From a virus: DNA of 64,000 bases. This document shows positions 3 through 63,080 of this stretch, in pieces. Position 1 is the stretch's first letter, and each line of letters begins with the position of its first letter. The notes beneath the pieces are model-generated. The model did no database searches. It had not been told where the DNA came from and saw nothing but the letters and a program-made list of their open reading frames with translations. Where the stretch lies: IMG/VR virus record IMGVR_UViG_3300036985_009306, positions 96,001-160,000 of that record; one strand, 5' to 3'. The translations under genes and the position numbers were made by a program.

Positions 3-3000
3 GTTGTAGGACAATCTTATATTATTACTTTTGTAGGAACTACAGATTTTACTTTGATTGGAGCAAGTTCAAATACAATAGGAGTTGCATTTACTGCAAC
101 AGGAACAGGATCAGGTACTGGAACAGCAATATTTTCAGTAGATTTAAAACCTGTTTATGCTAATCTTTCAAAATTTTTAGGAATAAAATCCTCTTTTTCA
201 GAACAATTGACTCTTCAAGGAACCATAGGCTTCTATTATAGTGTTATAACTCGTATTCCTATAGTAGAAGGTAGTTTAATTGTCACTAAAAATTCAACAC
301 CATTGACATTAAATACCGATTATACATTTGATTCAGCAACAGGAAAAATTAGTTATTTGACATCTGTTTTAATAACTGATGTTCTAGCAACTTCTTATTA
401 TCAAGATGGTGTAAAGTTTGGATTTACGCTTCTAGCAACTCCTGGTCAATTCTTTTTAAATGAAGGCATTCACACTATTTATTCTAAATCATATGATCGT
501 AATTCTGTTCTTTATAGTGATGAGCCTCAAAAATTTGGTACTCAAAGTACTCAGTTCAAACTTGATCGTGTAATACCTGTAACTACAGATAATGTTCTTA
601 ATGTTGGTTGGCAAATATCTCCTGTTACAGTTAGATTATTCCCTTATGATATAGGTTCAGGGATAGATAAAACTTATTATACTACAAATGGTTCTGATCC
701 TACAACTAGTTCTTCAATTTATGATGTTTCAACAGGAATAATTCTTACAGCAACAGGTGTTTACACTATAAAATATTTTTCAACAGATAAAGCAGGAAAT
801 ACAGAAAATATAAAGTCTGCTGCTTATCAGGTTTGGGTTGATGCTTCGTTGCCTGTTTCGAATTATACAATTTCTCCTTCATCTCCCGATGGAAATGATG
901 GATGGTATATAACAGATCCTACAATACATATTACTGCTTCTGATCCTGATTCCGGAATTGCAGCAATTTATTACAGAGTAAATTCTGGACCCCTTTCAAA
1001 CTATGATCCAAGTGGTATCTTAGTACCATTTCAGGGTTTAAATACGATAGAATTCTATAGTGTAGATAACGTAGGAAACATAGAATACCCTCATCATCAA
1101 ATAGACGTTAAATGGGACAATGTTCCACCTTCTACTACAACAGATATTACAAGTAATTATACTTCTAGTTCAATAATACGTTTTATTTCAAATGATGCTT
1201 CATCTGGATATGATACAACTTATTATACTACTGATGGTTCAACTCCTACAACAAGTTCGTCAAATGGTAGTTTTGTATTAACAGGTACATTTCTTCTAAA
1301 ATTCTTTTCTACAGACAAAGCAGGAAATCAAGAAGCAGTTCAATCACATCAATTTTATTTTGATTTTACTCCTCCTCAAATAACTAATTTTCAGCCTATA
1401 GGTTGTATAATTACTGACTCAACAACTGAGATTACTTTTGACATTACTGACGATCTTTCAGGAGTTGACATAGAATCTGTTTATTTGAATGTTGATGGTA
1501 TCATATATTCTACAACAAAAAATTCAAGCAAATTTAGTTATGTAGAACATTCTCCTCTTTCATATTCAATTACTCTTGTATTAGATTCTCAAGATGATCT
1601 AAATTTCCAAAACATCGATATTCTGATAGTAAATGCAAAAGACAATGTAGAAAATGCAACAAGTTTAGAATTTAATTTTGTTCATGAAGATACTATTCCA
1701 CCTTGGGTGTGTCAAGTATGGCCAGCACCAAATGTGCAGGATGTGTCTCTAAATTCAAATATAGCAGCTCTTATTGATGATGATCTATCAGGTGTGGATA
1801 TTAAATCTGTTAGAATATCTGTCAATGCTGTCGATTTTAATCTTAATTATAGAGATGTTCTAAACGTTCAATATACTGGTACTGCAAGTTCAGCAATTCT
1901 TAAAGTTTATAATTATACGTTTACTACTTATATTGATGGTCAAACTGATATTACTTTTAGTTTGTATGAAGGCGGTTATAATACAATTCAAAAGATTTTG
2001 CTTTATTTTAATAGTTTGGCAAATTATTCAGCATCGATTATAGACTCTAAGCTTGCTCAACAACCAAGTATTTTCCTTTTGAATTCTCATAATTTGGACA
2101 TATTACATCAAGATAACATACTTCATCTTTCTATACCTAATGAAAATAGCAATTTTTCTTTTATTGAAAGGGCAAATGGTTATTTAGTTTTTGCAGATCC
2201 TAGTTTTAATTTTCAACATTTGTCACCTGTTAATGTGATCATTAATGCTTCAGATAATTCTGGAAATTCAATGGTCCCTTTTTCATATGTGTTTATACCT
2301 CATGTTTATGCAACACCTTCCATTCAAGACAGAAATTATGTCAATCAAATTGCTTTGCAATATATTCAAAATCTTCAAGCTAATATTGCAAGTAACTATG
2401 TTCATTCTAAATCTACAGAATTCTATGGTCATAATAAAGCAATTTGTCTTGAATTAGGTAGACATCAACAACAAATAGATCTTCTTAATAAAGATAGAAG
2501 CTATTCTACATTAACAGAAGCCTATCTTTACGACAAATTGGGATATTTGCTTTATACAATGCCTACGATTGGAATGTCACATGATGATTATAGAGCATTG
2601 TTACAATCTCTTATATTAATTTTGTTTCAGGGTTCTCTCAAATCTTCTCTTGAACAAGGCATCTCATTATTAACAGATCTGACTGTTAATATTACAGAGT
2701 TAGTTTTTGCTCCTGGTTCTGATATATCAGAACAATTCATGATTTATGTGGATCTTTTATTGGACAGTGCACCATTAGCAGGTGTTGATCTCATTGTACT
2801 TAGTAATAATTTAGCCCATATATTTGAATTAGTGAAACCAGCACATATATTTATAGTCCAACGTTTTGTCTGGACTGAACCTGAAGTATTTCATTTACAA
2901 GATGAATTTTACTCTATAACATTTAGTGGAAGATTTACTGAAGAACAATTAGGAATTTATAAAGATACAGATAATAAAACTGTTGACCATGAATATTCTC

Positions 3001-3613: not shown

Positions 3614-4429
3614 ATGTATCAATTTATTGAACGTGCAAAATTTCAAATTAAGGGTGAAGTATGGATAAAGATTGGAGACAATCTTACTAGAGAACAGATT
3701 TTAACTAAACCAGACAGACATATTGAAAATTTGATTGTTGATGTGGCAAGTGATTTGATTGCTCAATGGGCTCTAGTAAATGTTGATAATGCTGTTTCAG
3801 GTGATGTTTCAGACACTTCTATACACATACCGGGAATCTTAACTTTAGCTGTTGGAACTGGTGGTACAGGTTGGGATATTCAAAATCCACCTGTAGAAAC
3901 AGCTGATCTTACTGTGCTTTTTACAGAACTTGGTAGAAAAGCATTCATAAGTAAAAAGTATGTTGATAGTTATGGTAATGATCTTTCATCACCTTCTAAT
4001 CCGGCAACTGTTAGTACAAGTACAAGTCAATTTACCGTGGGTGTAAATATACCTACAGGGACCCTTATAATGCTTACAGCAACTTCACTCCCTAATCCGC
4101 TTCAAGCAAATTATGTATATTTTGCAATTAATGTAGATGCAACGAATATACGTCTTGCAACATCTTATTCTAATGCATTGTTAGGTGTTTTTATTACTTT
4201 GACTACTGCTGGAACAGGAGTAAATGTAGTTGCTATAACTAACATTATAGATTTATTAACTACGTTTACTAGCAGTGAAGTTGTTGGACCTTTAGTAGAA
4301 ATGGGGTTGTTTGGTGGAGTAGGTGCTTTGAGTGCTAACGGCGGGATACGTGTTAATGCGAAGCATTTTCCAGTAATTAATAAACCACCCTCGTCGCAAA
4401 TGTCAGTTCTCTACCGTCTAATATTTTGA
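3614..4429 (+). CDS. Tail/baseplate-associated virion protein
   Basis: ENLIV..., LAVGTG, ELGRK, EMGLFGG and HFPVINK motifs resemble large-phage tail-fibre/baseplate attachment proteins; follows the baseplate gene. Confidence 0.55.
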   Translation: MYQFIERAKFQIKGEVWIKIGDNLTREQILTKPDRHIENLIVDVASDLIAQWALVNVDNAVSGDVSDTSIHIPGILTLAVGTGGTGWDIQNPPVETADLTVLFTELGRKAFISKKYVDSYGNDLSSPSNPATVSTSTSQFTVGVNIPTGTLIMLTATSLPNPLQANYVYFAINVDATNIRLATSYSNALLGVFITLTTAGTGVNVVAITNIIDLLTTFTSSEVVGPLVEMGLFGGVGALSANGGIRVNAKHFPVINKPPSSQMSVLYRLIF

Positions 4430-4457
4430 TTTTAAACAAATTATACTCTCATTTGTA

Positions 4458-4492
4458 AATTGCCTTTGATGAAAATTAAAGGCAATTTTTGT
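4458..4492 (+). terminator. Rho-independent terminator after the tail module
   Basis: AAATTGCCTTT / AAAGGCAATTT hairpin followed by TTTGTTT. Confidence 0.7.
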
Positions 4493-4553
4493 TTATTAAA
4501 AAAATAGTAAAATATTATTACTTTTTCCTTACTTTTTGTGTATATTATGAAAT

Positions 4554-6383
4554 ATGACAAGAAAATGTAAAGATTGTGGAAGAGATGTTGAAGTACTTTC
4601 TAAATTAGCTACTAAAGTCTTATGCAAAGAATGTAAAAGCAAAAAAAATAATGATTATCCACAAATTCTTAATGTTGATACAGATGATTTCATTTATTGT
4701 AGATTTTGTGGTTTAGTAAGAAAATCATTATCTCATCATATTAAAAAGTTTCATAAAATTACTGAAGAACAATATTTACAGCAGTTTGGTGATGTTCCAA
4801 TACAATCTAAAAATCTTTTTGAAAAAAGAAAGAATCGTTCTCAAGAATCAAGAGATAGAGTAAGTTTAACTTCAAAACAAGCATGGCAAGATTCTGAGTA
4901 TAGAAAAAAACAGATAGAAAGATTAAGAAATCAACATAGAGAACCATGGAAGATGTCAAAAGAAGGTGTTGAGCATATTAAAGAGGGACAGAATAAGTCT
5001 GTTAAAATGCAAGCAAGAAGAGAAAGAAAAAAGCAAAATGAGTTTAAAAGAAAAGAAGAGATAAGAACAGGAAAAGAAAGTTTAAAAGAATTTGTTCTTT
5101 GTCCTTTATGTTTAAGAGAAGGAAAAGATGAGATAGGCTCTAGATTTGAATGTTTAACATTTAAGCATTTAAAAAGTCATAATTATAGTTCAGAACAGTT
5201 TAAGAATGAATTTAAAGATTTTAAGTTTAAGATAGATAGATTGAGAAAAGAACATTCTGAGTGTTTATCTGGTGAGAACCATTTTAATTATGGAAAGAAA
5301 TATAGTGATGAACTTAAGCAAAATATTTCTAAAGGGGTCATAGAAACTTGGGATGAACATAATCCAAAAAAAATTTGTCCTCAGTGTGGAACAAGAATGT
5401 TAGAGAGAAATGAAAAAGAAGTTTGTAAGAATTGTATGTTTAAAATTTATGGTTTTGAAGATACTAATGAATATGTGTATTGTAGAATTTGTTTTAGAAT
5501 AAATGGAAATTTGACACAACATATTGTTAATGATCATCATATAACAACTGAAGCGTACAAAGAAACGTATCAATGTGAGATTTATTCAAAAAACAATAGA
5601 GATGCAATTGGAAAACATTTAATAAGTATTCCAATTACTGAACATCATAGAAATGCAATTAAACAATTTAATATAAGAAAAAATATTGAGAAAATTAGAT
5701 TAGAAGACGACTTTAAAAACGAAAATTATACTTTTTTATTAGAAAGAAAAATTCCATTTGATTTAGAAGATACATATGATTTTGTTTATTGTAGATATTG
5801 TTTAAGACAGATGAAGTTTGTGTCATCAGAACATTTATTTAATCATAATCTTACTGTATGGATGTATCATCAATTATTTCCTGACGTACCTTTATTTGCT
5901 AGATCAGTCATTAATAGAGTAGTAAGTAAAGGAGTAGCAACTAAGATAAGATTAGGTACGTTAAATCTTGGTTGTTATGGATATTCAGGGTATAGAAAAG
6001 ATATTGGACATTTTACAAGAAGTATGGTAGAAGCAAATTTTTGTAGAATTTTGATTTATAATAATGTAAAATATGAATATGAACCCAAAACATTTCCTCT
6101 TGAGCATGAAATTTATTCAAGTTATACACCTGATATATTGTTATTACAAGATTTTTATGCATGGAAAGAAGGAACGTTTTTGGAGTTAAAAAATAGAGGA
6201 ATGGATGAAGATAATGAAAAGAAGATGAATGTGTTTTTTGAAAAGTTTCCTGAGGTTGTATTAGTTGTATTAGATAAGTCATCACAAGAAGTAGTAAATT
6301 TAGAAAGATTGTATAGACATAAGATTGATTTATGGGAGACTAGTGAAAGAAATATCGAGACAACACCTGAGTTATATGTTTAG
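4554..6383 (+). CDS. Multi-zinc-finger protein with C-terminal PD-(D/E)xK nuclease (homing-endonuclease-like)
   Basis: Four CxxC...H...H units (e.g. YCRFCGLVRKSLSHHIKKFH); NUMOD3-like SGENHFNYGKKYSDELKQNIS; C-terminal YEYEPKTF...YTPDILL...FLELK. Confidence 0.6.
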   Translation: MTRKCKDCGRDVEVLSKLATKVLCKECKSKKNNDYPQILNVDTDDFIYCRFCGLVRKSLSHHIKKFHKITEEQYLQQFGDVPIQSKNLFEKRKNRSQESRDRVSLTSKQAWQDSEYRKKQIERLRNQHREPWKMSKEGVEHIKEGQNKSVKMQARRERKKQNEFKRKEEIRTGKESLKEFVLCPLCLREGKDEIGSRFECLTFKHLKSHNYSSEQFKNEFKDFKFKIDRLRKEHSECLSGENHFNYGKKYSDELKQNISKGVIETWDEHNPKKICPQCGTRMLERNEKEVCKNCMFKIYGFEDTNEYVYCRICFRINGNLTQHIVNDHHITTEAYKETYQCEIYSKNNRDAIGKHLISIPITEHHRNAIKQFNIRKNIEKIRLEDDFKNENYTFLLERKIPFDLEDTYDFVYCRYCLRQMKFVSSEHLFNHNLTVWMYHQLFPDVPLFARSVINRVVSKGVATKIRLGTLNLGCYGYSGYRKDIGHFTRSMVEANFCRILIYNNVKYEYEPKTFPLEHEIYSSYTPDILLLQDFYAWKEGTFLELKNRGMDEDNEKKMNVFFEKFPEVVLVVLDKSSQEVVNLERLYRHKIDLWETSERNIETTPELYV

Positions 6384-7192: not shown

Positions 7193-8083
7193 ATGGATTT
7201 ACTTGTGATAGGGGGTAATGGGTTTGTAGGTGCAAATTTTATTCAATATATTTTAGAAAAGTATCATGATTACAATGTTATATGTATAGATAAACATACA
7301 AATGAGAATATAGAAAAAACTGAAAAATTTCATTTTTATCAAGTAGATTTTTGTAATATAGAAGAAGTATTGAAAGTTTTTAAGTTTTGGTATAGTTTTG
7401 ATATAATAGTAAATTTTGCTGAAGAAAATAATGAAAATATTATAGATTCAAATATTTATGGTGTGTACAAGATTTTTGAAATAATTAAGAAATATAAGGT
7501 TAAACATTTTTTACAAGTTTCTACAACAGATGTTTATGATATATTAAATGATGAACAAAGATTTGCCGAAACTTCTAATACAAGTCTTTATTCTGCTTCT
7601 AAAGCTTCAGCTGATTTAATTGCATTATCATATTTTCACAGTTTTAAGATACCTGTAGTAGTTTCAAGATGTTCAAATAATTTTGGGATTTATCAAAATA
7701 CTAATGAATTTATTCCCTCTTTGATAATAAATGCTTTGACTAAGAAGAAGCTTATAGTTTACGAGGATGATATTAGAAATTGGATTAATGTTTTGGATCA
7801 TTGTAGAGCTTTAGATACTTTGATGCATTATGGCAAATTTGGTGAGATTTATAATATAAAAGGAAATCGACATAGTAGTTTAGAAATAGCAAGATTAATA
7901 ATGAATTATTTGAATTTACCTTTAGATATGTTGGAAGTGAGATCTAGAGAATATAGTTTTAAAAGCGAAATAGATTATTCAAAAATAGGTGATGAATTTG
8001 GGTGGAAACCTGTCTTAGATTTCAAAGAGAGTTTGATTGATACAATTGAATCATATAGGACAAATTTTGTAAAGATTTTATAA
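7193..8083 (+). CDS. NAD-dependent epimerase/dehydratase, dTDP-glucose 4,6-dehydratase (RmlB/RfbB)-like, divergent
   Basis: GGNGFVGANF Rossmann motif; YSASK; VVSRCSNNFG; RNWINVLDHCRAL. Confidence 0.8.
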   Translation: MDLLVIGGNGFVGANFIQYILEKYHDYNVICIDKHTNENIEKTEKFHFYQVDFCNIEEVLKVFKFWYSFDIIVNFAEENNENIIDSNIYGVYKIFEIIKKYKVKHFLQVSTTDVYDILNDEQRFAETSNTSLYSASKASADLIALSYFHSFKIPVVVSRCSNNFGIYQNTNEFIPSLIINALTKKKLIVYEDDIRNWINVLDHCRALDTLMHYGKFGEIYNIKGNRHSSLEIARLIMNYLNLPLDMLEVRSREYSFKSEIDYSKIGDEFGWKPVLDFKESLIDTIESYRTNFVKIL

Positions 8084-8132
8084 TATTCAAATACATGCAA
8101 TTTATTCCATTGAAACATTAATAGGAGGTGTT

Positions 8133-8768
8133 ATGCATAAATATTCAGAGAATTGTCAAATTTGTAACATAGTTGGTGATTTTTCAGCTAAAACAAGTTC
8201 TAATATGAGCATTGGGGAAGCTAAGAGGAAAGTTGAAGAGCTTTTAAAAAATCCAGAACTTTTAAAACAAGTAGGAGATGCTCTTAAGAGTGCTTCATTG
8301 AACAAGGAAGCTGCTATTTCTCCTTTAATAAGAACATTTGTTCTTGCTCTAATGACATTAGCCCCTTCTATTTTTGCTGTTCCAAGTATTCAAAGTGATC
8401 TTGAGATGAAGCTTAAACATGGTGATAATATTACAATGGAACAAGTAAATACAATGGAAGATAGAGCCAAGAAAGAAATGCAGACAATGACAGAGACTTC
8501 TGTCAATAAAGTTAATGATGCAATTAAAGATGATAAAGGTAAAGAAAAACAGGTTGATTTTGGAATTCAAGTAGGCAAAGAAAAGTTAATGGCAGCAAAT
8601 GCATATGAGGCCAATATTCTAAAAAATATGGCACAATTGCATAAAATTCTTTTTGCACAGATGAAATCAGGAATTATGGATCAAGCAAGTTATGATAAAG
8701 CTTGTCAAATATTGATAAGTTCTTTTAATAAAGCTATAGCAGGACAGGCTCAAGAGGTTGTTCTTTAG
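8133..8768 (+). CDS. Hypothetical protein (possible virion-internal protein)
   Basis: AGGAGG SD; helical; followed by a terminator. Confidence 0.55.
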   Translation: MHKYSENCQICNIVGDFSAKTSSNMSIGEAKRKVEELLKNPELLKQVGDALKSASLNKEAAISPLIRTFVLALMTLAPSIFAVPSIQSDLEMKLKHGDNITMEQVNTMEDRAKKEMQTMTETSVNKVNDAIKDDKGKEKQVDFGIQVGKEKLMAANAYEANILKNMAQLHKILFAQMKSGIMDQASYDKACQILISSFNKAIAGQAQEVVL

Positions 8769-38624: not shown

Positions 38625-39095
38625 ATGCTTAGAGATACACAATCAAAGTTTTTAAATGATATAAGTATTTCAAAAAGAGGTATTGTAAAAGTTGCTTCTT
38701 CACAAGTTCCGAGAGGAAAAGAAGCAACAACTAAACATGAAGTCAAGAAAGTTTTAAAGACTTTTGAAAAAAGTCCTGATGTGACAAAGGATACATTAAA
38801 TAAATATCAACAAAGAGTGGAATTAGATCCAAGTCCAAAAAATGTTGCTAAAGATTTCTTTAATGATCTTGGTGAAGCAAGAAAACATAAAAAACAAATG
38901 CATTTAGTAACTGCTATGTCTTTGAGACAAGCAGGTATCTTTAAGATAGCAGGTAGAAATGTATATGAGGATTTAGAGACAGGTGATTTTTGGAAAATGT
39001 CTGAAGACAAGAAACATGTTTTACGTATGTTCAAAGAAAATAATGGTATTGCTGTAAATTTAAAAGATAAAAAACATGTCGTCAATTGCCATTAA
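38625..39095 (+). CDS. Hypothetical protein whose last codons (VNCH*) come from the IscB element left end
   Basis: AAGGAG SD; GTCAATTGCCATTAA begins in frame at 39081. Confidence 0.6.
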   Translation: MLRDTQSKFLNDISISKRGIVKVASSQVPRGKEATTKHEVKKVLKTFEKSPDVTKDTLNKYQQRVELDPSPKNVAKDFFNDLGEARKHKKQMHLVTAMSLRQAGIFKIAGRNVYEDLETGDFWKMSEDKKHVLRMFKENNGIAVNLKDKKHVVNCH

Positions 39096-39310
39096 TGGTC
39101 TAAGCCGTGAGGTTTAGTGCAAGAGTTGATTAGAGGGCATGAAAATGCAGAAGTTTAAAGCAGAGTTAAAGAACGTACCAAAGAGTGCTCCACAAGCTCT
39201 TTGCTCTACAAGTCCATCTTTAAACAAAGACCAAAGTCTTAGTGAGATGGACAAAGTACTGGCTTTAAACAACCTCGAAGTGGATCCACTCCAACATAGA
39301 GGAGGACAGA
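39081..39310 (+). ncRNA. omegaRNA scaffold (3' boundary approximate)
   Basis: GTCAAT paired with GTTGAT; hairpins CTAAGCC/GGTTTAG and AAAGAG/CTCTTT; directly upstream of the PLMP domain. Confidence 0.7.
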
Positions 39311-40505
39311 AACTCTCTGTCACTATCTATGTATTTAACATACATGGCCAACCTCTAATGCCATGTTCACCAAGAAAAGCTAGAGTTTTATTAAAGAGAG
39401 GAGAAGCAAAAGTCTTAAAAACAAATCCATTCTTTGTCATTCAACTTACTAAAGAAACTAGTAATCATGTACAAGAGTGCTCTTTAGGAATAGACTCTGG
39501 TTACAAGCATATAGGTTTTTCTGTAGTTAGTGACAAGAAAGAAATTGTTTGTGGTGAGTTAGAACTTGATCAAAAAACTTCTGAAAGATTAATTAAACGA
39601 ACAGGATATCGTAGAAATAGAAGAAATAGATTGTGGTATAGAAAGCCAAGATTTAGTAATAGAAAAAAAGATAAAGGATGGTTGCCGCCTTCAACTTTAA
39701 GAAGATTCAACACTCATATCTCTCTTATCAACAAACTCAAATCTTATCTACCAATCAAAGATATCTCTATAGAAGTAGGAAATTTTGATATTCAGAAGAT
39801 AGAGAATCCAGATATTAAGGGAATACAATATCAACAGGGAAGTTTGTATGAATATCAGAATATGAGAAGTTTTTTAATGGATAGAGAACATGGCAAGTGT
39901 CAACTATGTGGAAAAGAATTTAGCAAAGGAAATGACTCACACATCCATCATATTATTCCCAGAGATGATGGAGGGACAGATAGAGAAAAGAATTTAGCTT
40001 TGTTGCATAAAAGTTGTCATAAAAAACTTCACAAACAAAAATTATTTGATAAATTAAAAAAGAACAAGCAGTATAAAGATTCAATATTTATGAATATTAT
40101 TAGATGGAGGTTTAGAGAAATATTTAGAGAATGTAGGTTAGTGTATGGGAATGAGACATTTGTAAAGAGAAATGAGTTAAGATTAGAGAAGAGACATTGT
40201 AATGATGCTTTTGTAATAGCAAGTGGTACAAATCAAATTAAGACAAATCCTATGTTTTTAAAACAGAAACATAAAAATAATAGAGTTTTGCAAGTTAATA
40301 GAAAAGGTTTTAGACCTTCTATCAGAAGAAAAAGATATTCTATTCAACCCTATGATATAGTATTTATAAATAACAAGAAATATATTGCAAAAGGGTGTCA
40401 TTGTTATGGTAAAAGTATTATTTGTAATAATAGAATAAAAACTTTGGATTGTAGTATTAAAAAAGTTGAAAAAGTTTTCTATACAAATTCAATTTTTCAA
40501 AAAAT
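39081..40505 (+). mobile_element. Non-autonomous IS200/IS605-family IscB (OMEGA) element
   Basis: GTCAAT...GTTGATTAGA omegaRNA-type 5' end, intact iscB, no tnpA; removing 39081-40505 restores an open C-terminus for the flanking gene. Confidence 0.8.
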
Positions 40506-40509
40506 ATAA
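39139..40509 (+). CDS. iscB: IscB RNA-guided endonuclease (PLMP, split RuvC, bridge helix, HNH)
   Basis: GQPLMPCSPRKAR; LGIDSGYKHIG; RRNRRNRLWYRKPRF; IEVGNFD; CQLCG...HIHHIIPRDDGGTD...NLALLHKSCH; HCNDAFVIA. Confidence 0.92.
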   Translation: MKMQKFKAELKNVPKSAPQALCSTSPSLNKDQSLSEMDKVLALNNLEVDPLQHRGGQKLSVTIYVFNIHGQPLMPCSPRKARVLLKRGEAKVLKTNPFFVIQLTKETSNHVQECSLGIDSGYKHIGFSVVSDKKEIVCGELELDQKTSERLIKRTGYRRNRRNRLWYRKPRFSNRKKDKGWLPPSTLRRFNTHISLINKLKSYLPIKDISIEVGNFDIQKIENPDIKGIQYQQGSLYEYQNMRSFLMDREHGKCQLCGKEFSKGNDSHIHHIIPRDDGGTDREKNLALLHKSCHKKLHKQKLFDKLKKNKQYKDSIFMNIIRWRFREIFRECRLVYGNETFVKRNELRLEKRHCNDAFVIASGTNQIKTNPMFLKQKHKNNRVLQVNRKGFRPSIRRKRYSIQPYDIVFINNKKYIAKGCHCYGKSIICNNRIKTLDCSIKKVEKVFYTNSIFQKI

Positions 40510-46084: not shown

Positions 46085-46136
46085 ACAATGAATTCTAAGA
46101 TTAATTATTAGAGTTTATAATTGAAAGGAGCGACAA

Positions 46137-46409
46137 ATGTCAACTTGGGTAGTTCCAATCGTGGTTTGTTTTTTAGTAGGTGCATTTTCTTTCTTCATGG
46201 GGCGGTGGAGTCGCCGTTCTAACACTAAGGCAGGCGCTCCTTCCACATCAACCAACAGTGATTATGCGGCGTTGGCACAGGCGTGGCGCAAACTTGCTGA
46301 TGAGTCAAGTGACGCACGGTATAGTGCTCATCTTTATGGTTGTGCCGAAGATTTGTGCCAACTCAATTCGGCCAAAGCTCCGAACTCGCATTTTGCGGCG
46401 ACTGTATAG
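46137..46409 (+). CDS. Cassette-like small ORF reading through attC-like element A
   Basis: AAAGGAG SD; N-terminal TM; ...STSTNSDYAALA...; stop inside the right arm. Confidence 0.5.
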   Translation: MSTWVVPIVVCFLVGAFSFFMGRWSRRSNTKAGAPSTSTNSDYAALAQAWRKLADESSDARYSAHLYGCAEDLCQLNSAKAPNSHFAATV

Positions 46410-46410
46410 G
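46252..46410. repeat. attC-like imperfect inverted repeat A (degenerate)
   Basis: ACATCAACCAACAG left end; GTTGGCAC / GTGCCAAC arms; ends ACTGTATAGG, 8 nt before the next ATG. Confidence 0.45.
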
Positions 46411-46417
46411 GACACAA

Positions 46418-46630
46418 ATGGATTCTAAATACGTAGTTCATCTTCTAAAACAACTAATTGTGAAGCACGGGCAGGTTCGGCACAACGAAGCATTGGAATC
46501 CATTTGTGCAGAACTGAAGGGGCACTGCAAAACAGTCCGGCGAAACGCCCATACAACAGACAAAGTGCGCCATATAGATGACGTGTTCCTTCGACCGAGA
46601 GCTTCGGGCAACTATCGAAAAATATTCTAA
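46418..46630 (+). CDS. Cassette-like small ORF
   Basis: ATG follows the element A right end; contains an orphan left arm GCCCATACAACAG. Confidence 0.35.
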   Translation: MDSKYVVHLLKQLIVKHGQVRHNEALESICAELKGHCKTVRRNAHTTDKVRHIDDVFLRPRASGNYRKIF

Positions 46631-46871
46631 TGATGGTTTGTTGTCGGCAGGAGAAATTGTTGCCGTATTGGAGGTTGTAAAACATGCTACCATTCACGCT
46701 GCTGAGAATGCGGCGGCTGACACTGAGGTAGACAATTTTACATCCACCAACAGCGCTATGGATGCCATTGCCGAACTCGCCGAAAAGTTCATTGTGTCAA
46801 ATAAATGTGACGAAAGTGTTTCTATAATGCTGCGGTGCTTTGCGGAGTATGTTCGGCAACAGCACCAGTAG
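46578..46871 (+). CDS. Cassette-like small ORF reading through attC-like element B
   Basis: ...FTSTNSAMDAIA...RQQHQ*; stop lies in the right arm. Confidence 0.5.
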   Translation: MTCSFDRELRATIEKYSNDGLLSAGEIVAVLEVVKHATIHAAENAAADTEVDNFTSTNSAMDAIAELAEKFIVSNKCDESVSIMLRCFAEYVRQQHQ

Positions 46872-46885
46872 CGCGAACGTTGGCC
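46745..46885. repeat. attC-like imperfect inverted repeat B
   Basis: CCAAC...GTTGG ends; GCGCTA/TAGCGC and TTGCCGAAC/GTTCGGCAA arms. Confidence 0.7.
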
Positions 46886-46938
46886 AAAATAAACCGCGTT
46901 GGGAACAGATATTATAGCCCGGCGCAGGAGAAAACAAA

Positions 46939-47265
46939 ATGGAATGCAAATTTACCCAGGGCTTTGTGACAGCGTGTGCGGCAACGTTGCGTAATCATGG
47001 TTGTGATACCATTGTCGCGGATACTCTCGTTTGTTGTGGCCCAGTGTCAGTGGATCAGTATCGGAAGTTGGGTGTTGAGGAATACGACATTGATATTTTG
47101 CGACCTGTTATCAAAGAAATACAAAGGAAGAAAAGATGCGCCAGGAGTACACTGCGGAAACGCAGTTTACATCGGCCAACAGCTCAAGCATGGCAATCGG
47201 ACGGTACTGTGGTGCCTGCTGACGGTTACGGCCAGCATAGTCATCCTGATTTTTTCTCAAATTAA
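46939..47265 (+). CDS. Cassette-like small ORF
   Basis: AGGAG SD; GC-rich; runs into element C. Confidence 0.5.
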   Translation: MECKFTQGFVTACAATLRNHGCDTIVADTLVCCGPVSVDQYRKLGVEEYDIDILRPVIKEIQRKKRCARSTLRKRSLHRPTAQAWQSDGTVVPADGYGQHSHPDFFSN

Positions 47266-47296
47266 CGGCGCCACTCTGATATCCAGATGTTGGTGC
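47174..47296. repeat. attC-like element C
   Basis: ACATCGGCCAACAG left end; right arm CACTCTGATATCCAGATGTTGGTGC nearly identical to the right arm of element F at 62757. Confidence 0.55.
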
Positions 47297-47312
47297 AAGA
47301 AAGGAAATACAA

Positions 47313-47564
47313 ATGGTATTAATTGACGGCAAAGAAGTAGATGTTAAAGAAGTCGATGCTGCAAAACATGGATTTATTGGGACGTTTCGTAAACCGTTTG
47401 AACAAATCAAAAGACCACTTTACGACATAATTTTTTGCAGTTGCGGATTGAATGTTTGTGGTGGTCACTATGACCTTTATCAACATTGGCAAATGGGGCA
47501 TTTTGACTTGTTGCAATACAAAACAATAGAAGATGTGCCAACGGAAATTAAGGAAGTGGCATAG
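47313..47564 (+). CDS. Cassette-like small ORF with Cys/His motif
   Basis: AAAGGA SD right after the GTT of element C; CSCG...HWQMGH. Confidence 0.55.
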   Translation: MVLIDGKEVDVKEVDAAKHGFIGTFRKPFEQIKRPLYDIIFCSCGLNVCGGHYDLYQHWQMGHFDLLQYKTIEDVPTEIKEVA

Positions 47565-47569
47565 ACATC

Positions 47570-47659
47570 TTACAACAGCAGCATAAAATAACCGCCGACT
47601 GGTGGAATGATTGGAGTACCATAGATGATGAGCCATTTGACATTTGACAACTGTTAGGA
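47570..47659. repeat. attC-like element E (weak arms)
   Basis: Stop-ACATCTTACAACAG left end; ends CTGTTAGGAG, which also supplies the SD of the next gene. Confidence 0.4.
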
Positions 47660-47665
47660 GATTGT

Positions 47666-48172
47666 ATGAAAAAATTTTTTTCACTAGTTTGTTTGTTAAT
47701 GATATCATGTGCATCTACAAAACCTGCTGTAAACGAACAACATTTGAAATATTCATATTTACCTCCTAAATTAAATATTGATTCATTGATGCCAGTCAAT
47801 AGTGTTGTAGACACAAATCTTCATGATTTTACTTCTGTTGCAATTGATTCTGGAAAACTAGTTACTATTAATAAAGATACTCTTAAACTTCATCCTGGAG
47901 TATTGATAAGTGAAAAAAAAGCAGCTCTATTTATTTATTATAAATCAAGTTATGAATATTTATATAAAAAAGCTATGTTGACAAATATATTGTATTCTGA
48001 TTATTACGACAAATCTGTTGATGCTGAGAAAATTTATCAAAATGATATAATAAATTTGTCTAAAAAAGCTGAAAGAACTTGGTTGGAAAAAAATATGGTT
48101 TATTTTGGGTTTATAGCAGGTATTGCTACATGCATTCTTACTGAATATGCGGTGATTAAAACATCTAAGTAA
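47666..48172 (+). CDS. Lipoprotein with C-terminal hydrophobic segment (spanin-like)
   Basis: Lipobox MKKFFSLVCLLMIS|C; WLEKNMVYFGFIAGIATCIL. Confidence 0.5.
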   Translation: MKKFFSLVCLLMISCASTKPAVNEQHLKYSYLPPKLNIDSLMPVNSVVDTNLHDFTSVAIDSGKLVTINKDTLKLHPGVLISEKKAALFIYYKSSYEYLYKKAMLTNILYSDYYDKSVDAEKIYQNDIINLSKKAERTWLEKNMVYFGFIAGIATCILTEYAVIKTSK

Positions 48173-48502: not shown

Positions 48503-49390
48503 ATGAGTATCGATCTTAAGTCCCGCATTTCATCCGCAGCAGAAGTTCTTGATCTTTTTTTTCAAAAAGCAAAAATTGATGTTGATTCAATCTCATATCT
48601 TAAACAAATTCTTGAGCTTATGGGAATTGATGAAACAAAAACCGGTATTGAAACTTTAGAAGCAGAATCTACTACTTTTGAAGATTTTCAAAAAATAATC
48701 CTTGTAAAAATTCCTTTACCCAGACTCAAACTTGCGTGGTCAATTCTCAAAGGAGTTGAAGAAACAAAAACAAATGTAACCAATGTGATTAATCAGTCTG
48801 CTGATTTGTCTACATTGATTCAGACTATAAGACCGATTGGAACATGGGGTGATCTCGAACTTTTAGAGAAATATGGAAGAGAATGTTCCCCAGAAATTGA
48901 AGAGGAATTGAAGAAAAGGAGTAAGAGTAGAAACTGTATTGTGTTTTTTGAGGATGGAACAGTTGATTCTGAAAAATCTTTGTATGTTTTGAGAAAAGCA
49001 CGGCATCAAGAAACTCCCACAACCTTCATGTTTAAAGACGAAATGAAACAAGTCTTTAAAGTAGGAGAGTTTCCGCTAGACGTCCTTTTTGAATGTCCTA
49101 TCCACAGAAATGTTCTTCTAGTCGATGGATATTGTGAAGAATGTGGTATAACTTGGAATACTGAAAACATGGATCGTCTTGCACTTCTTAGATTAGTAAA
49201 AGAAGGCACTTCATCTGATCCAATAGTTTACAGAACTTTTAATTTCGATAAATTGTGTAAAGAATTTCCCAAAATCTATATACAATTTAAAGAATTAAAA
49301 TCTGAAGACAAGCTTCCAAGTTTAAAGAGAAGAATTTCTAAAGCAAAAGATGGCGACCCTTTCAGGGTTTCTTCTCACAAGACATTCTAA
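48503..49390 (+). CDS. Hypothetical protein with Zn-ribbon
   Basis: AAGGAG SD; ECPIH...GYCEECG. Confidence 0.6.
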   Translation: MSIDLKSRISSAAEVLDLFFQKAKIDVDSISYLKQILELMGIDETKTGIETLEAESTTFEDFQKIILVKIPLPRLKLAWSILKGVEETKTNVTNVINQSADLSTLIQTIRPIGTWGDLELLEKYGRECSPEIEEELKKRSKSRNCIVFFEDGTVDSEKSLYVLRKARHQETPTTFMFKDEMKQVFKVGEFPLDVLFECPIHRNVLLVDGYCEECGITWNTENMDRLALLRLVKEGTSSDPIVYRTFNFDKLCKEFPKIYIQFKELKSEDKLPSLKRRISKAKDGDPFRVSSHKTF

Positions 49391-60114: not shown

Positions 60115-60321
60115 ATGAAGTTGACAGAATGTAAGGTTGGTTGTCCTCGGCGCGGCAGAAAGAAAATTGTGGAGTTGCCGCAAACAGGCAAACAACAACG
60201 CAAGGGCGAAATTTGCCGCTGCGGTAGCAAGAAAGATTGGGAACATATTCGTAACTTTGTCGGTTGGTGTAACTTTAATTTTTGTCCCGAATGTGGCGGC
60301 AAACTGTCGCCCGTTGCGTAG
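60115..60321 (+). CDS. Cassette-like ORF whose Zn-finger C-terminus is encoded inside attC-like element H
   Basis: CRCG...FCPECGGKL; stop TAG in the right arm. Confidence 0.5.
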   Translation: MKLTECKVGCPRRGRKKIVELPQTGKQQRKGEICRCGSKKDWEHIRNFVGWCNFNFCPECGGKLSPVA

Positions 60322-60330
60322 ACGTTAGGC
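60190..60330. repeat. attC-like inverted repeat H (clearest example)
   Basis: AAC...GTTAGGC core; ACGCAA/TTGCGT, GGGCGA/TCGCCC and TTTGCCGC/GCGGCAAA arms with unpaired G60313. Confidence 0.75.
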
Positions 60331-60421
60331 ACAATTGTCAACGCTTGAGAGCTATAGTTTTTGGGAGCTAAGATGTCAAAGATGAGTATATGGGCATGTA
60401 ATTGTATTCCTGGTGTGAAAT

Positions 60422-60652: not shown

Positions 60653-60783
60653 TAATATTATAAGTAATTTTACAGAAGAATACGTACAAAAAGAAATGTA
60701 TGATTATTTTGGCATAAAAGAAAATGATAACATATTAAACATAAATGGAAATATAAATACAGATTTCTTTGAAGGGATTAAAA

Positions 60784-61182
60784 ATGAAAAAGATACCAAC
60801 CGTTAGTGGAATTGTATCAAAACCTGCTAATGATGAATATAGAAAAAATTATGACAGGATATTTGGTGAACAACAAGAAATTAAAGAAAAACCAATAATT
60901 AAAGAAAAACCAATAAAAAAAGAATTTATAGATTTAATTCCTATAAGAAATGATCTTGTTAATATAGAACGTAAACTTCGTAGACTATTGCACCCTTTAG
61001 AAAATTGTGGAATACGAGGTTATATAGAATGTAAACTTCGTAGACTATTGCACCCTTTAGAAAATTGTGGAATACGAGGTTACACAAGTAAAGAATTCGA
61101 GGGATTTCAATGTATTGAGATAGCCCAATCAATTAAATTTCTTTTATGTAAAATTGATGAACAAAATCACGAGGCAAAATAA
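60784..61182 (+). CDS. Hypothetical protein with internal duplications
   Basis: IKEKPI x2; 20-aa unit x2. Confidence 0.45.
   Translation: MKKIPTVSGIVSKPANDEYRKNYDRIFGEQQEIKEKPIIKEKPIKKEFIDLIPIRNDLVNIERKLRRLLHPLENCGIRGYIECKLRRLLHPLENCGIRGYTSKEFEGFQCIEIAQSIKFLLCKIDEQNHEAK
60962..61082. repeat. 60-bp near-perfect tandem duplication
   Basis: GTAAACTTCGTAGACTATTGCACCCTTTAGAAAATTGTGGAATACGAGGTTA at 60971 and 61031. Confidence 0.95.
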
Positions 61183-62277: not shown

Positions 62278-62535
62278 ATGACTAAAGAAGAATTTTGTAA
62301 AGCTCCCAAAAAGGTAACTATAGTTTTTAATCGAGTAACATCAAATGAAGAATTAAAAAGACTTTTAGATATGGCAAGTTTGAATGTCGAAAGTTCTATT
62401 ATGGGTGCTGATTTTAGTACTGTGGAAAATGGTGTTCAAAAGAGTTGCGGAACGCCTTACATCTTACAACAGGTCGAGTATGCCATGCCGGGGAATCCAC
62501 AGACGCGAGCTATCCTTGGCAACAAGGGTAGATGA
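62278..62535 (+). CDS. Hypothetical protein running into element D
   Basis: AT-rich N-terminus, GC-rich C-terminus. Confidence 0.45.
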   Translation: MTKEEFCKAPKKVTIVFNRVTSNEELKRLLDMASLNVESSIMGADFSTVENGVQKSCGTPYILQQVEYAMPGNPQTRAILGNKGR

Positions 62536-62597
62536 AAAAGGTGCAGTCCGGTTACAAGTCGGACGTTCCCCGGCACAGCACACGTCGGCCGTTTTCT
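62464..62597. repeat. attC-like element D
   Basis: ACATCTTACAACAG left end; perfect TGCCGGGGAA/TTCCCCGGCA arms; ends GGCCGTT. Confidence 0.65.
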
Positions 62598-62655
62598 TTT
62601 CTGGTGGAAGGTGTGTGACATTTCCGCTGACATTAGGGAAATTCGCGCAACGGTC

Positions 62656-62781
62656 GTACAACAGGCAAAGGAATGCCATAACCTTGACACTATAGAAGTA
62701 AAAAATAAATAGCGGTTCGGCAAACGGATGCCGTAACCGCTGCAAGAAATTTATGTCACTCTGATATTCAGATGTTGGCGC
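62656..62781. repeat. attC-like element F
   Basis: TACAACAG left end; internal AGCGGTT/AACCGCT hairpin; right arm CACTCTGATATTCAGATGTTGGCGC then AGGAG SD and ATG. Confidence 0.6.
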
Positions 62782-62794
62782 AGGAGAAAACCAA

Positions 62795-63031
62795 ATGCCT
62801 AAATTCAGACTTAGAAATTCAGTAGATTGTGAAGAAGAACAGATAGTCAATCTTATTAAAGGTACTAACGGGGAACGATTTATAGCAGGTTGGAAAGGTT
62901 GCGGTGCTGTAAAATTCAAAGCAAATGATACAGCACTAATTTTTGAAGTTATGTGTGAAAATAAACCCTATGGTGATGTCGGGGTTACTTGGGAAGAAGA
63001 TGCGTCAACGGACACTAAAGAAGTGACCTAA
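62795..63031 (+). CDS. Cassette-like small ORF after element F
   Basis: AGGAG SD directly after GTTGGCGC. Confidence 0.55.
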   Translation: MPKFRLRNSVDCEEEQIVNLIKGTNGERFIAGWKGCGAVKFKANDTALIFEVMCENKPYGDVGVTWEEDASTDTKEVT

Positions 63032-63080
63032 ACATCTTACAATTTGAATAAATAGGTGGGCGCAAAACAAAGGAGTAATT

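Follow-up and report, generated by a model that had tools for sequence, protein, structure and literature searches.

The attC sites of integron cassettes are 57-141 bp long and lie between an R'' box (RYYYAAC) and an R' box (GTTRRRY), with crossover at G|TT; two or three bases, G ... T, are extrahelical and stand 6 bp apart. In an integron array the R' box pairs with the next R'', its TTRRRY being part of the cassette downstream, and where at least two such sites are clustered without an integrase the group is called a CALIN (cluster of attC sites lacking an integron integrase). In canonical sites the unpaired central spacer measures 5-6 nt on each arm, the extrahelical bases stand on the arm that faces the 5'-AAC-3' of the recombined bottom strand, and that strand is the more stable of the two, with 1.24 G:T pairs against 0.39 on the top strand (PMC5027507). 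Integron cassettes in phages have so far been seen as few, short clusters of canonical sites: the published phage CALINs hold 2-4 sites each, called by IntegronFinder or HattCI, and IntI1 recombined 5/6 of the phage attC sites tested (PMC9892861). For a recombination site within coding sequence the sole precedent that we found is that of synthetic attC sites (PMC7439510). A different system, the promoter early stem-loops (PeSLs) of T4-type phages, combines a sigma-70 promoter with a terminator stem-loop and acts via homologous recombination, and both PeSL-mediated shuffling and mini-circles have been documented (PMC2839356). Here we examine a GC-rich interval at 46.1-47.66 kb of a 64,000-nt stretch of phage DNA (the window), which comprises bases 96001-160000 of the 192,143-bp IMG/VR record IMGVR_UViG_3300036985_009306, a record that is 97% complete. 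The original prediction, made from the letters of the window, had read this interval as an integron-like array with four attC-like elements (A, B, C and E). We put the probability at about 60% that it is what remains, after decay, of an array in a cassette system that is attC-like but non-canonical, codes for protein and is common to unrelated large phages. The family to which it belongs folds with covarying arms, pairs each GTTG box with the next CAAC box, has breakpoints at GTT, shares parts between phages and is translated through its sites. As CALINs in phages have been published (PMC9892861), the kind is already known and the variant is new.

The predicted GC-richness of the elements was borne out. 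No GC island in the genome is larger than that at 46.1-47.35 kb (43-54% GC vs 30.8% genome-wide), and all but one of the window's open reading frames (ORFs) of at least 150 aa are on the plus strand. The left motif claimed for the four elements, ACATCNNNCAACAG (ACATC-NNN-CAACAG), is exact at 46245, 46740, 47169 and 47565, inside the island, and a fifth exact copy lies at 62459, all on the plus strand. These five copies are also the only ones in the whole 192-kb genome, where 0.81 would be expected with one mismatch allowed. Sequence conservation reaches about 45 nt upstream of the motif (family D1). ORFs that cross the motif encode TSTNS at 46740 and YILQQ at 62459; family-wide, three frames are used (TSTNS, HIHQQ/YILQQ and HPPTA). 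Because crossing ORFs read it in different frames, the left motif is a signal at the DNA level.

With the right-end pattern we found IMGVR_UViG_3300017917_002466, a complete phage of 253,664 bp with terminal repeats, which carries an 8.5-kb GC-rich array within an AT-rich backbone. Unconstrained DNA folding of 24 elements gave a common design, and 15 of these elements were used to build a covariance model, R1. On the gene strand the design runs from NNNCAAC through one unpaired A and 6 + 6 base pairs to a variable interior; after this come the 6 complementary bases, a bulge of one base, a further 6 bases, a spacer of 4-5 nt with AC at its end and finally GTTGNNN. R1 finds two sites in the present genome and 31 in the 253-kb phage (24+7, the seven forming a second array outside the training set). 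It also gives 51 matches, 47 of them complete and tabulated, in 12 metagenome contigs that were retrieved via an unrelated leader pattern. Every R1 site is co-oriented with the genes. Of the 78 sites on the family list, this phage contributes two, the 253-kb phage 31 and the 12 contigs all others. When three family-specific DNA patterns and the pattern of the array start (see below) were searched in IMG/VR, only the 253-kb phage was found.

The inner stem of the family covaries. In 32 aligned sites, 81% of cells are base-paired, as compared with 60% after shuffling (0/500 as high) and about 30% with the partners slid, and at 10 of the 12 pairs of the inner stem both partners change. Similarly, in 77 sites the arms of one site pair with each other at 10.8/12 positions, vs 8.1 for arms taken from different sites. 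CAAC and GTT(G/A) are invariant or nearly so, both in the aligned and in the 78 listed sites, and the outer three positions vary. The distance from R'' to R' is 42-154 nt in the modelled sites (mostly 59-152 nt). The commonest spacer, that of 66/77 sites, is a lone A (1 nt) in the 5' arm and NNAC (4-5 nt) in the 3' arm; there is a single bulge, a G in 34 sites and an A in 13, on the gene strand's 3' arm, with 6 bp and then an internal loop after it. Over many stem positions of the 77 sites the gene strand has 60 A.C mismatches vs 21 G.T pairs, and the complementary strand is predicted to be the more stable in 66 of them (mean 1.9 kcal/mol, p = 9e-9).

The outer bases of CAAC pair with the GTTG box of the preceding hairpin and not with that of the same hairpin. 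When R' and leader of one site were compared with trailer and R'' of the next, the latter reverse-complemented, 11/19 positions matched, against 6.6 for the same hairpin and 6.3 for other pairs, and in an independent metagenome set the values were 11.6 vs 6.4. This chain pairing continues for 22-45 nt past the R box into leader and trailer, with a conserved mismatched ACATC/GAAAT patch. Furthermore, two contigs, L015 and L016, show 99.2% identity over 2405 nt, which starts at AC|GTTGG behind two unrelated hairpins; their point of divergence is exactly AC|GTT. One whole GTT-to-GTT cassette is common to the 253-kb phage and L015 at 93.5%, and one leader is found after eight different intact hairpins and two array-start sites, its similarity beginning at GTT each time. 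The resolution of these breakpoints at AC|GTT is a few bases. The present phage and the 253-kb phage are not close kin, because their DnaB proteins are only 24% identical; their cassette parts are 82-93% identical.

Another shared part is a 'shell', made up of a leader of about 55 nt and a trailer of about 70 nt that are 82-100% identical across contigs and mutually complementary over about 45 nt. It occurs twice in the window (47262-47577 and 62745-63042), in contigs L011-L022 and in L006, a locus of the 253-kb phage. At least nine unrelated AT-rich ORFs are surrounded by this shell; several of these continue in frame into an end, ..APTDxKEVx, that the trailer encodes. A search for the cassette-leader pattern in 185,579 prokaryote genomes (596 Gb) gave one match, which we treat as chance because about two would be expected by chance; it is an exact 20-nt leader match at 2138-2157 of L023, from a Blautia metagenome-assembled genome (JBKXQO010000015.1), in an ABC-ATPase-like ORF with no hairpin nearby.

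The sites are also read as protein. In 73/77 sites one frame has no stop between the CAAC box and the last 30 nt before GTT, and this frame extends upstream by a median of 141 nt. Stops fall into two groups in 57 of these 73, 39 sites having them 4-11 nt and 18 sites 22-30 nt before GTT. Two frames account for most readings of AAC, with 31 sites each. Many of the encoded tails have two CxxC motifs, including the DnaJ-like CxxCxGxG, and others belong to an LKAEIA...RQLSAV family, in which the conserved ends are the two arms read as codons.

These features suggest how such a system could work. The interval at 46.1-47.66 kb would be what is left of an integron-like cassette array taken from a pool common to unrelated large phages. 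An intact cassette begins with a leader at its GTTG box, continues with a Shine-Dalgarno (SD) sequence and a small ORF, and ends with a trailer closing in ACA(T/G)C-NNN-CAAC and an imperfect palindrome of 45-155 nt. The ORF is translated through the palindrome, with its stop codon in or beside the 4-nt spacer that precedes the next GTTG. Cassettes could then be cut and joined at AC|GTT when the gene-complementary strand folds as an attC site does, that is, by a single-stranded DNA mechanism. That a recombinase acts on these sites, be it the integron integrase (IntI) of the host or some other, unrecognised enzyme, we infer purely, as the original prediction did.

Element B, which had been described as about 140 nt long with imperfect arms, proved to be the intact site of the island (46740-46885). 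It contains, in order, R'' CACCAAC (46745-46751), an A, the 6+6 bp inner stem, a variable loop, a right arm with a bulged G, the spacer GAAC (46875-46878) and R' GTTGGCC (46879-46885), and its complementary strand folds at -28.5 kcal/mol (z = -3.95, 0/200 shuffles as good). The other three elements are less well preserved than had been supposed. R1 scores are 2.9 bits for A (46245), 5.3 bits for C (47169) and 4.5 bits for E (47565), and the corresponding fold z values are -1.0 (folded 46250-46399), 0.05 (47174-47300) and -0.17 (47570-47660). Because none of the three folds better than shuffles and their R1 scores are low beside the 71 bits of B, we regard the island as one intact site plus relics; the relics keep their trailer, the left motif with its CAAC box and a GTT box, and their right arms are lost. 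Also seen, as predicted, are GTT(A/G)G boxes with an SD/ATG following in 10-25 nt, and ORFs that cross the motif and have their stop codon in the right arm. The parts of the array, together with related features elsewhere, are collected in Table 1.

Table 1. Parts of the cassette array and related sites in the window, and array-start sites of relatives.
Feature	Position	Strand	Remarks
Cassette 1 leader + SD (TTGAAAGGAGCG)	46095-46136	+	Like leaders of the 253-kb phage
ORF1, 90 aa	46137-46409	+	N-terminal membrane helix, then ..APSTSTNS..; reads through relic site A
Relic site A	46245-46412	+	Left motif ACATCAACCAACAG (R''-type box) intact, arms decayed
ORF2, 70 aa	46418-46630	+	53-nt overlap with ORF3
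ORF3, 97 aa	46578-46871	+	Translated through the intact site; TAG stop in right arm, 10 nt before GTT
Intact attC-like site	46739-46891	+	R1 71 bits, E = 7e-16
Cassette 3 leader	46879-46938	+	First 22 nt complementary to 47159-47180 (own trailer + R'')
ORF4, 108 aa	46939-47265	+	Reads through relic site C
Relic site C	47168-47300	+	Left motif ACATCGGCCAACAG and left arm AGCTCAAGCA kept; right arm and R' lost
Cassette 4 shell leader (..CACTCTGATATCCAGATGTTGG..SD)	47262-47312	+	84% to the 253-kb phage; leader also in 12 metagenome contigs
ORF5, 83 aa, 37% GC	47313-47564	+	One of at least nine unrelated payload ORFs in the same leader/trailer shell
Shell trailer ending in ACATCTTACAAC (R'')	47506-47577	+	82% over 73 nt to the 253-kb phage; 83% to window 62995-63042
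Relic site E	47565-47660	+	Left motif and GTTAGGA (47651-47657) present; no stem left
Second intact site	60184-60336	+	R1 95 bits; translated as zinc-ribbon tail of ORF 60115-60321
Third cluster	62458-63042	+	Fifth left motif 62459; two marginal sites, 62458-62527 and 62650-62751 (9.8, 10.4 bits)
Third cluster, remaining parts	Shell leader 62759-62778; payload ORF 62795-63031; shell trailer	+	
Array-start site	L006 12090-12123	-	
Array-start site	L007 ~3636-3669	-	
Array-start site	L018 ~418-451	-	
Array-start site	L021 ~1462-1495	+	

The degree of wear differs along the island. The leader of cassette 1 is partly complementary to the trailer at 46230-46249 (local score 9 vs null 6.5 +/- 1.6), and ORF1 has the layout of a cassette ORF of the 253-kb phage (3163-3459); relic site A has a degenerate right box, GTATAGG, at 46404. 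Inside ORF2, a weak box resembling R'', ATACAACAG, at 46546-46554 belongs to a model match (46545-46686) that is not significant at 5.1 bits. In cassette 3 the chain complementarity is kept (46879-46900 vs 47159-47180, 82% over 22 nt, score 14 vs null 6.5 +/- 1.6), and in cassettes 2 and 4 it is gone. The left arm of relic site C resembles an intact site of the 253-kb phage (L006 5624), and the GTTAGGA of relic site E overlaps the SD of a phage lipoprotein-like gene at 47666-48172. The third cluster (62.46-63.04 kb) is worn in a similar way to the main island.

With five small ORFs to which searches assign no function, one intact site, three or four relics and no array-start site, the array in the present phage looks inactive. 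Searches of the five island ORFs against Pfam, PHROG and a protein atlas returned no family and no assignable function, blastn against 50,697 GenBank phages gave no match, and a search of IMG/VR gave no relatives of the flanking genes at 47666-48172 and 48503-49390. Among 5.8 billion proteins only five homologues of one cassette protein were found.

Four arrays of relatives share a conserved start, GTTA(G/C)A(C/T)AAGGGAATGAC-N10-TA|GTTG, also written GTTAGACAAGGGAATGAC..TA|GTTG, and in two of the four TTGACA-17-TATATT stands just upstream. From its sequence, this start looks like an attI-like platform with a cassette promoter, without an adjoining recombinase gene. At the end of the 253-kb phage's main array lies an ORF of 340 aa (L006 ~3871-4893, minus strand; reverse complement 7403-8425) in which the SPPY motif of an N6/N4-type DNA methyltransferase was read by eye; methyltransferase cassettes also occur in phage CALINs (PMC9892861).

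How far, then, does the integron-like reading hold? For the family it stands on the covarying stem, the complementarity between R' and the next R'', the AC|GTT breakpoints and the stability of the complementary strand. Like integron attC sites, the phage sites have inverse AAC...GTT cores and an imperfect hairpin that is kept as structure and not as sequence, in which the spacer is unpaired, one base is bulged and the terminal loop varies, and their length agrees with that of attC sites. The strand complementary to the genes is, as in attC, the more stable and the richer in G.T pairs. The arrays, too, resemble those of integrons: the cassettes are small and co-oriented and their ORF precedes the site, R' and the next R'' are complementary, the joints are at G|TT, and arrays of relatives begin at a conserved site, sometimes behind a sigma-70-like promoter. 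Unlike in attC, pairing extends 22-45 nt past the R box into leader and trailer and ORFs are translated through the entire site, and, unlike integrons, the carrier phage genomes have no IntI. Like the CALINs of virulent and uncharacterised phages (PMC9892861), the family forms attC-type clusters without an integrase; unlike them, its sites are non-canonical and protein-coding, number up to 24+7 per genome and are known from sequence alone. By the CALIN definition, the 253-kb phage and L015 qualify only if non-canonical sites count as attC, and the window offers one intact site plus relics in the island and a second intact site 13 kb away. A complete integron (intI beside attI and a cassette promoter) is absent, as neither genome has a PF00589 match, and an attI-like start with promoter is seen only in relatives of the present phage. 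As with synthetic in-coding attC sites (PMC7439510), the folded recombination site and the protein-coding sequence share the same DNA; those sites sit in engineered linkers and lacZ segments, whereas the phage family is natural and systematic, and its loops encode zinc-ribbon or helical C-terminal tails.

Several observations weigh against this reading. Two features that define attC are not as in integrons: the phage spacer is 1 x 4-5 nt instead of 5-6 x 5-6, and the single bulge shares its arm with the 5'-AAC-3' of the better-folding strand. Run on a Vibrio phage integron (16 attC sites) and on phage TJE1 (three), R1 gave no significant match. Only one of the four elements named in the window folds, and the array-start motif was not found in the present genome. 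The prediction that no integrase lies in the window extends further than was claimed, since no tyrosine recombinase is present in the whole genome either; no PF00589, PF00239 or PF01797 match was obtained in this genome or in the 253-kb phage, and no recombinase gene adjoins the arrays or the array starts. In addition, some of the common blocks comprise just the hairpin, and joints occur at R'' (the CAAC box) too, and exchange at R' (GTT) alone does not account for unrelated payload ORFs in identical shells.

A bolder version of the attC-like reading, which we put forward only tentatively, is that large phages carry an integron analogue of their own, with a promoter and array-start site and with folded sites that are translated as swappable C-terminal modules (zinc ribbons and helical hairpins), run by a recombinase that is not of tyrosine or serine type by Pfam. 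If so, each exchange would reshuffle gene content and protein tails together.

Mosaic joints whose position varies (within right arms, at R'' and at R') and the exchange of payload ORFs between ends of 55-70 nt that are 82-100% identical, enough for relaxed homologous recombination, are what would be expected if leaders, trailers and arms were recombination linkers, offering short homology by which general or phage recombinases shuffle modules, as has been proposed for PeSL cassettes. The documented PeSL shuffling and mini-circles (PMC2839356) lend this idea a precedent, and it fits with the failure to find a recombinase in either phage genome. PeSLs and the present units are alike in two respects: within plastic regions of large phages, short conserved units flank small accessory ORFs, and modules are shuffled. 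However, homology alone needs neither covarying stems nor a fixed bulge and spacer, nor leader/trailer complementarity that shifts in sequence yet stays paired, nor a strand bias in wobble pairs and stability, and at several joints only AC GTTG is shared on the upstream side. Furthermore, promoter and terminator consensus sequences are not in excess in the island (11 promoter-like sites vs 10.1 expected; one terminator-like site vs 2.1 expected), and therefore these are not units of the PeSL type; unlike PeSLs, they have AAC/GTT cores and covarying arms. We consider shuffling through homologous linkers rather unlikely.

The sites lie inside translated ORFs with the stop codon in an unpaired spacer, every one is co-oriented with the genes, and trailers often contain CTCCTTCC, a complement to the SD of their own cassette. 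All of this could also be accommodated if the palindromes folded in mRNA, for 3'-end stability, translation coupling or SD masking, and if the array grew by ordinary duplication. Yet the transcribed sense has 60 A.C against 21 G.U, G.U intermediates are rare, and the complementary strand is the stabler in 66/77 sites; this strand asymmetry argues against selection on an mRNA fold. Nor would RNA elements explain the GTT breakpoints between 99%-identical contigs, and we rate them as highly improbable. The Rfam search of the island and of 59.9-63.7 kb matched no family, which speaks against an RNA role and led us to reject any known RNA family (group I intron, riboswitch or others). Finally, although several tails are alike as protein (e.g. 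..QQLKAEIA...RQLSAV and CxxC...CxxC), the proposal that there is no element and that the motif is a peptide (TSTNS) common to a paralogous small-protein family in a compositionally odd island can be dismissed, since the same DNA motif is read in three frames, which already refutes it and equally rejects a protein-level repeat, and since conservation runs into untranslated leaders and the arms covary as base pairs.

Should the attC-like reading be correct, this family would extend what is known of integron cassettes in phages by a cassette pool of their own, common to unrelated large phages. Its site design would depart from the rules that are thought to set strand choice by integron integrases, and it would show in nature an overlap of recombination site and coding sequence previously only engineered (PMC7439510). 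It also supplies concrete sites and a candidate attI-like partner for finding the enzyme that moves accessory genes between phages. For the present window, it would mean that five small foreign ORFs have been left by a mostly decayed array.

Two other types of element were considered. A diversity-generating retroelement was rejected because the site interiors are mutually unrelated and are not adenine-specific variants of one template. An IS200/IS605-type element or a repetitive extragenic palindrome with its associated tyrosine transposase (REP/RAYT) was rejected as well, neither phage having a Y1 (PF01797) match, despite an IscB/HEARO unit nearby. In that unit, at 39081-40509 of the window, a HEARO (omega) RNA (RF02033, 98 bits) stands at the start of a 456-aa IscB-like ORF with RRXRR and HNH domains; it is an RNA-guided nuclease unit in the phage replication region, 6.5 kb upstream of the island. 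Elsewhere in the window, ORF 60769-61182 contains two tandem copies of a 60-nt unit, 98% identical, at 60962-61082, and an 18-nt repeat (2.6 copies) lies just upstream of it at 60879-60924.

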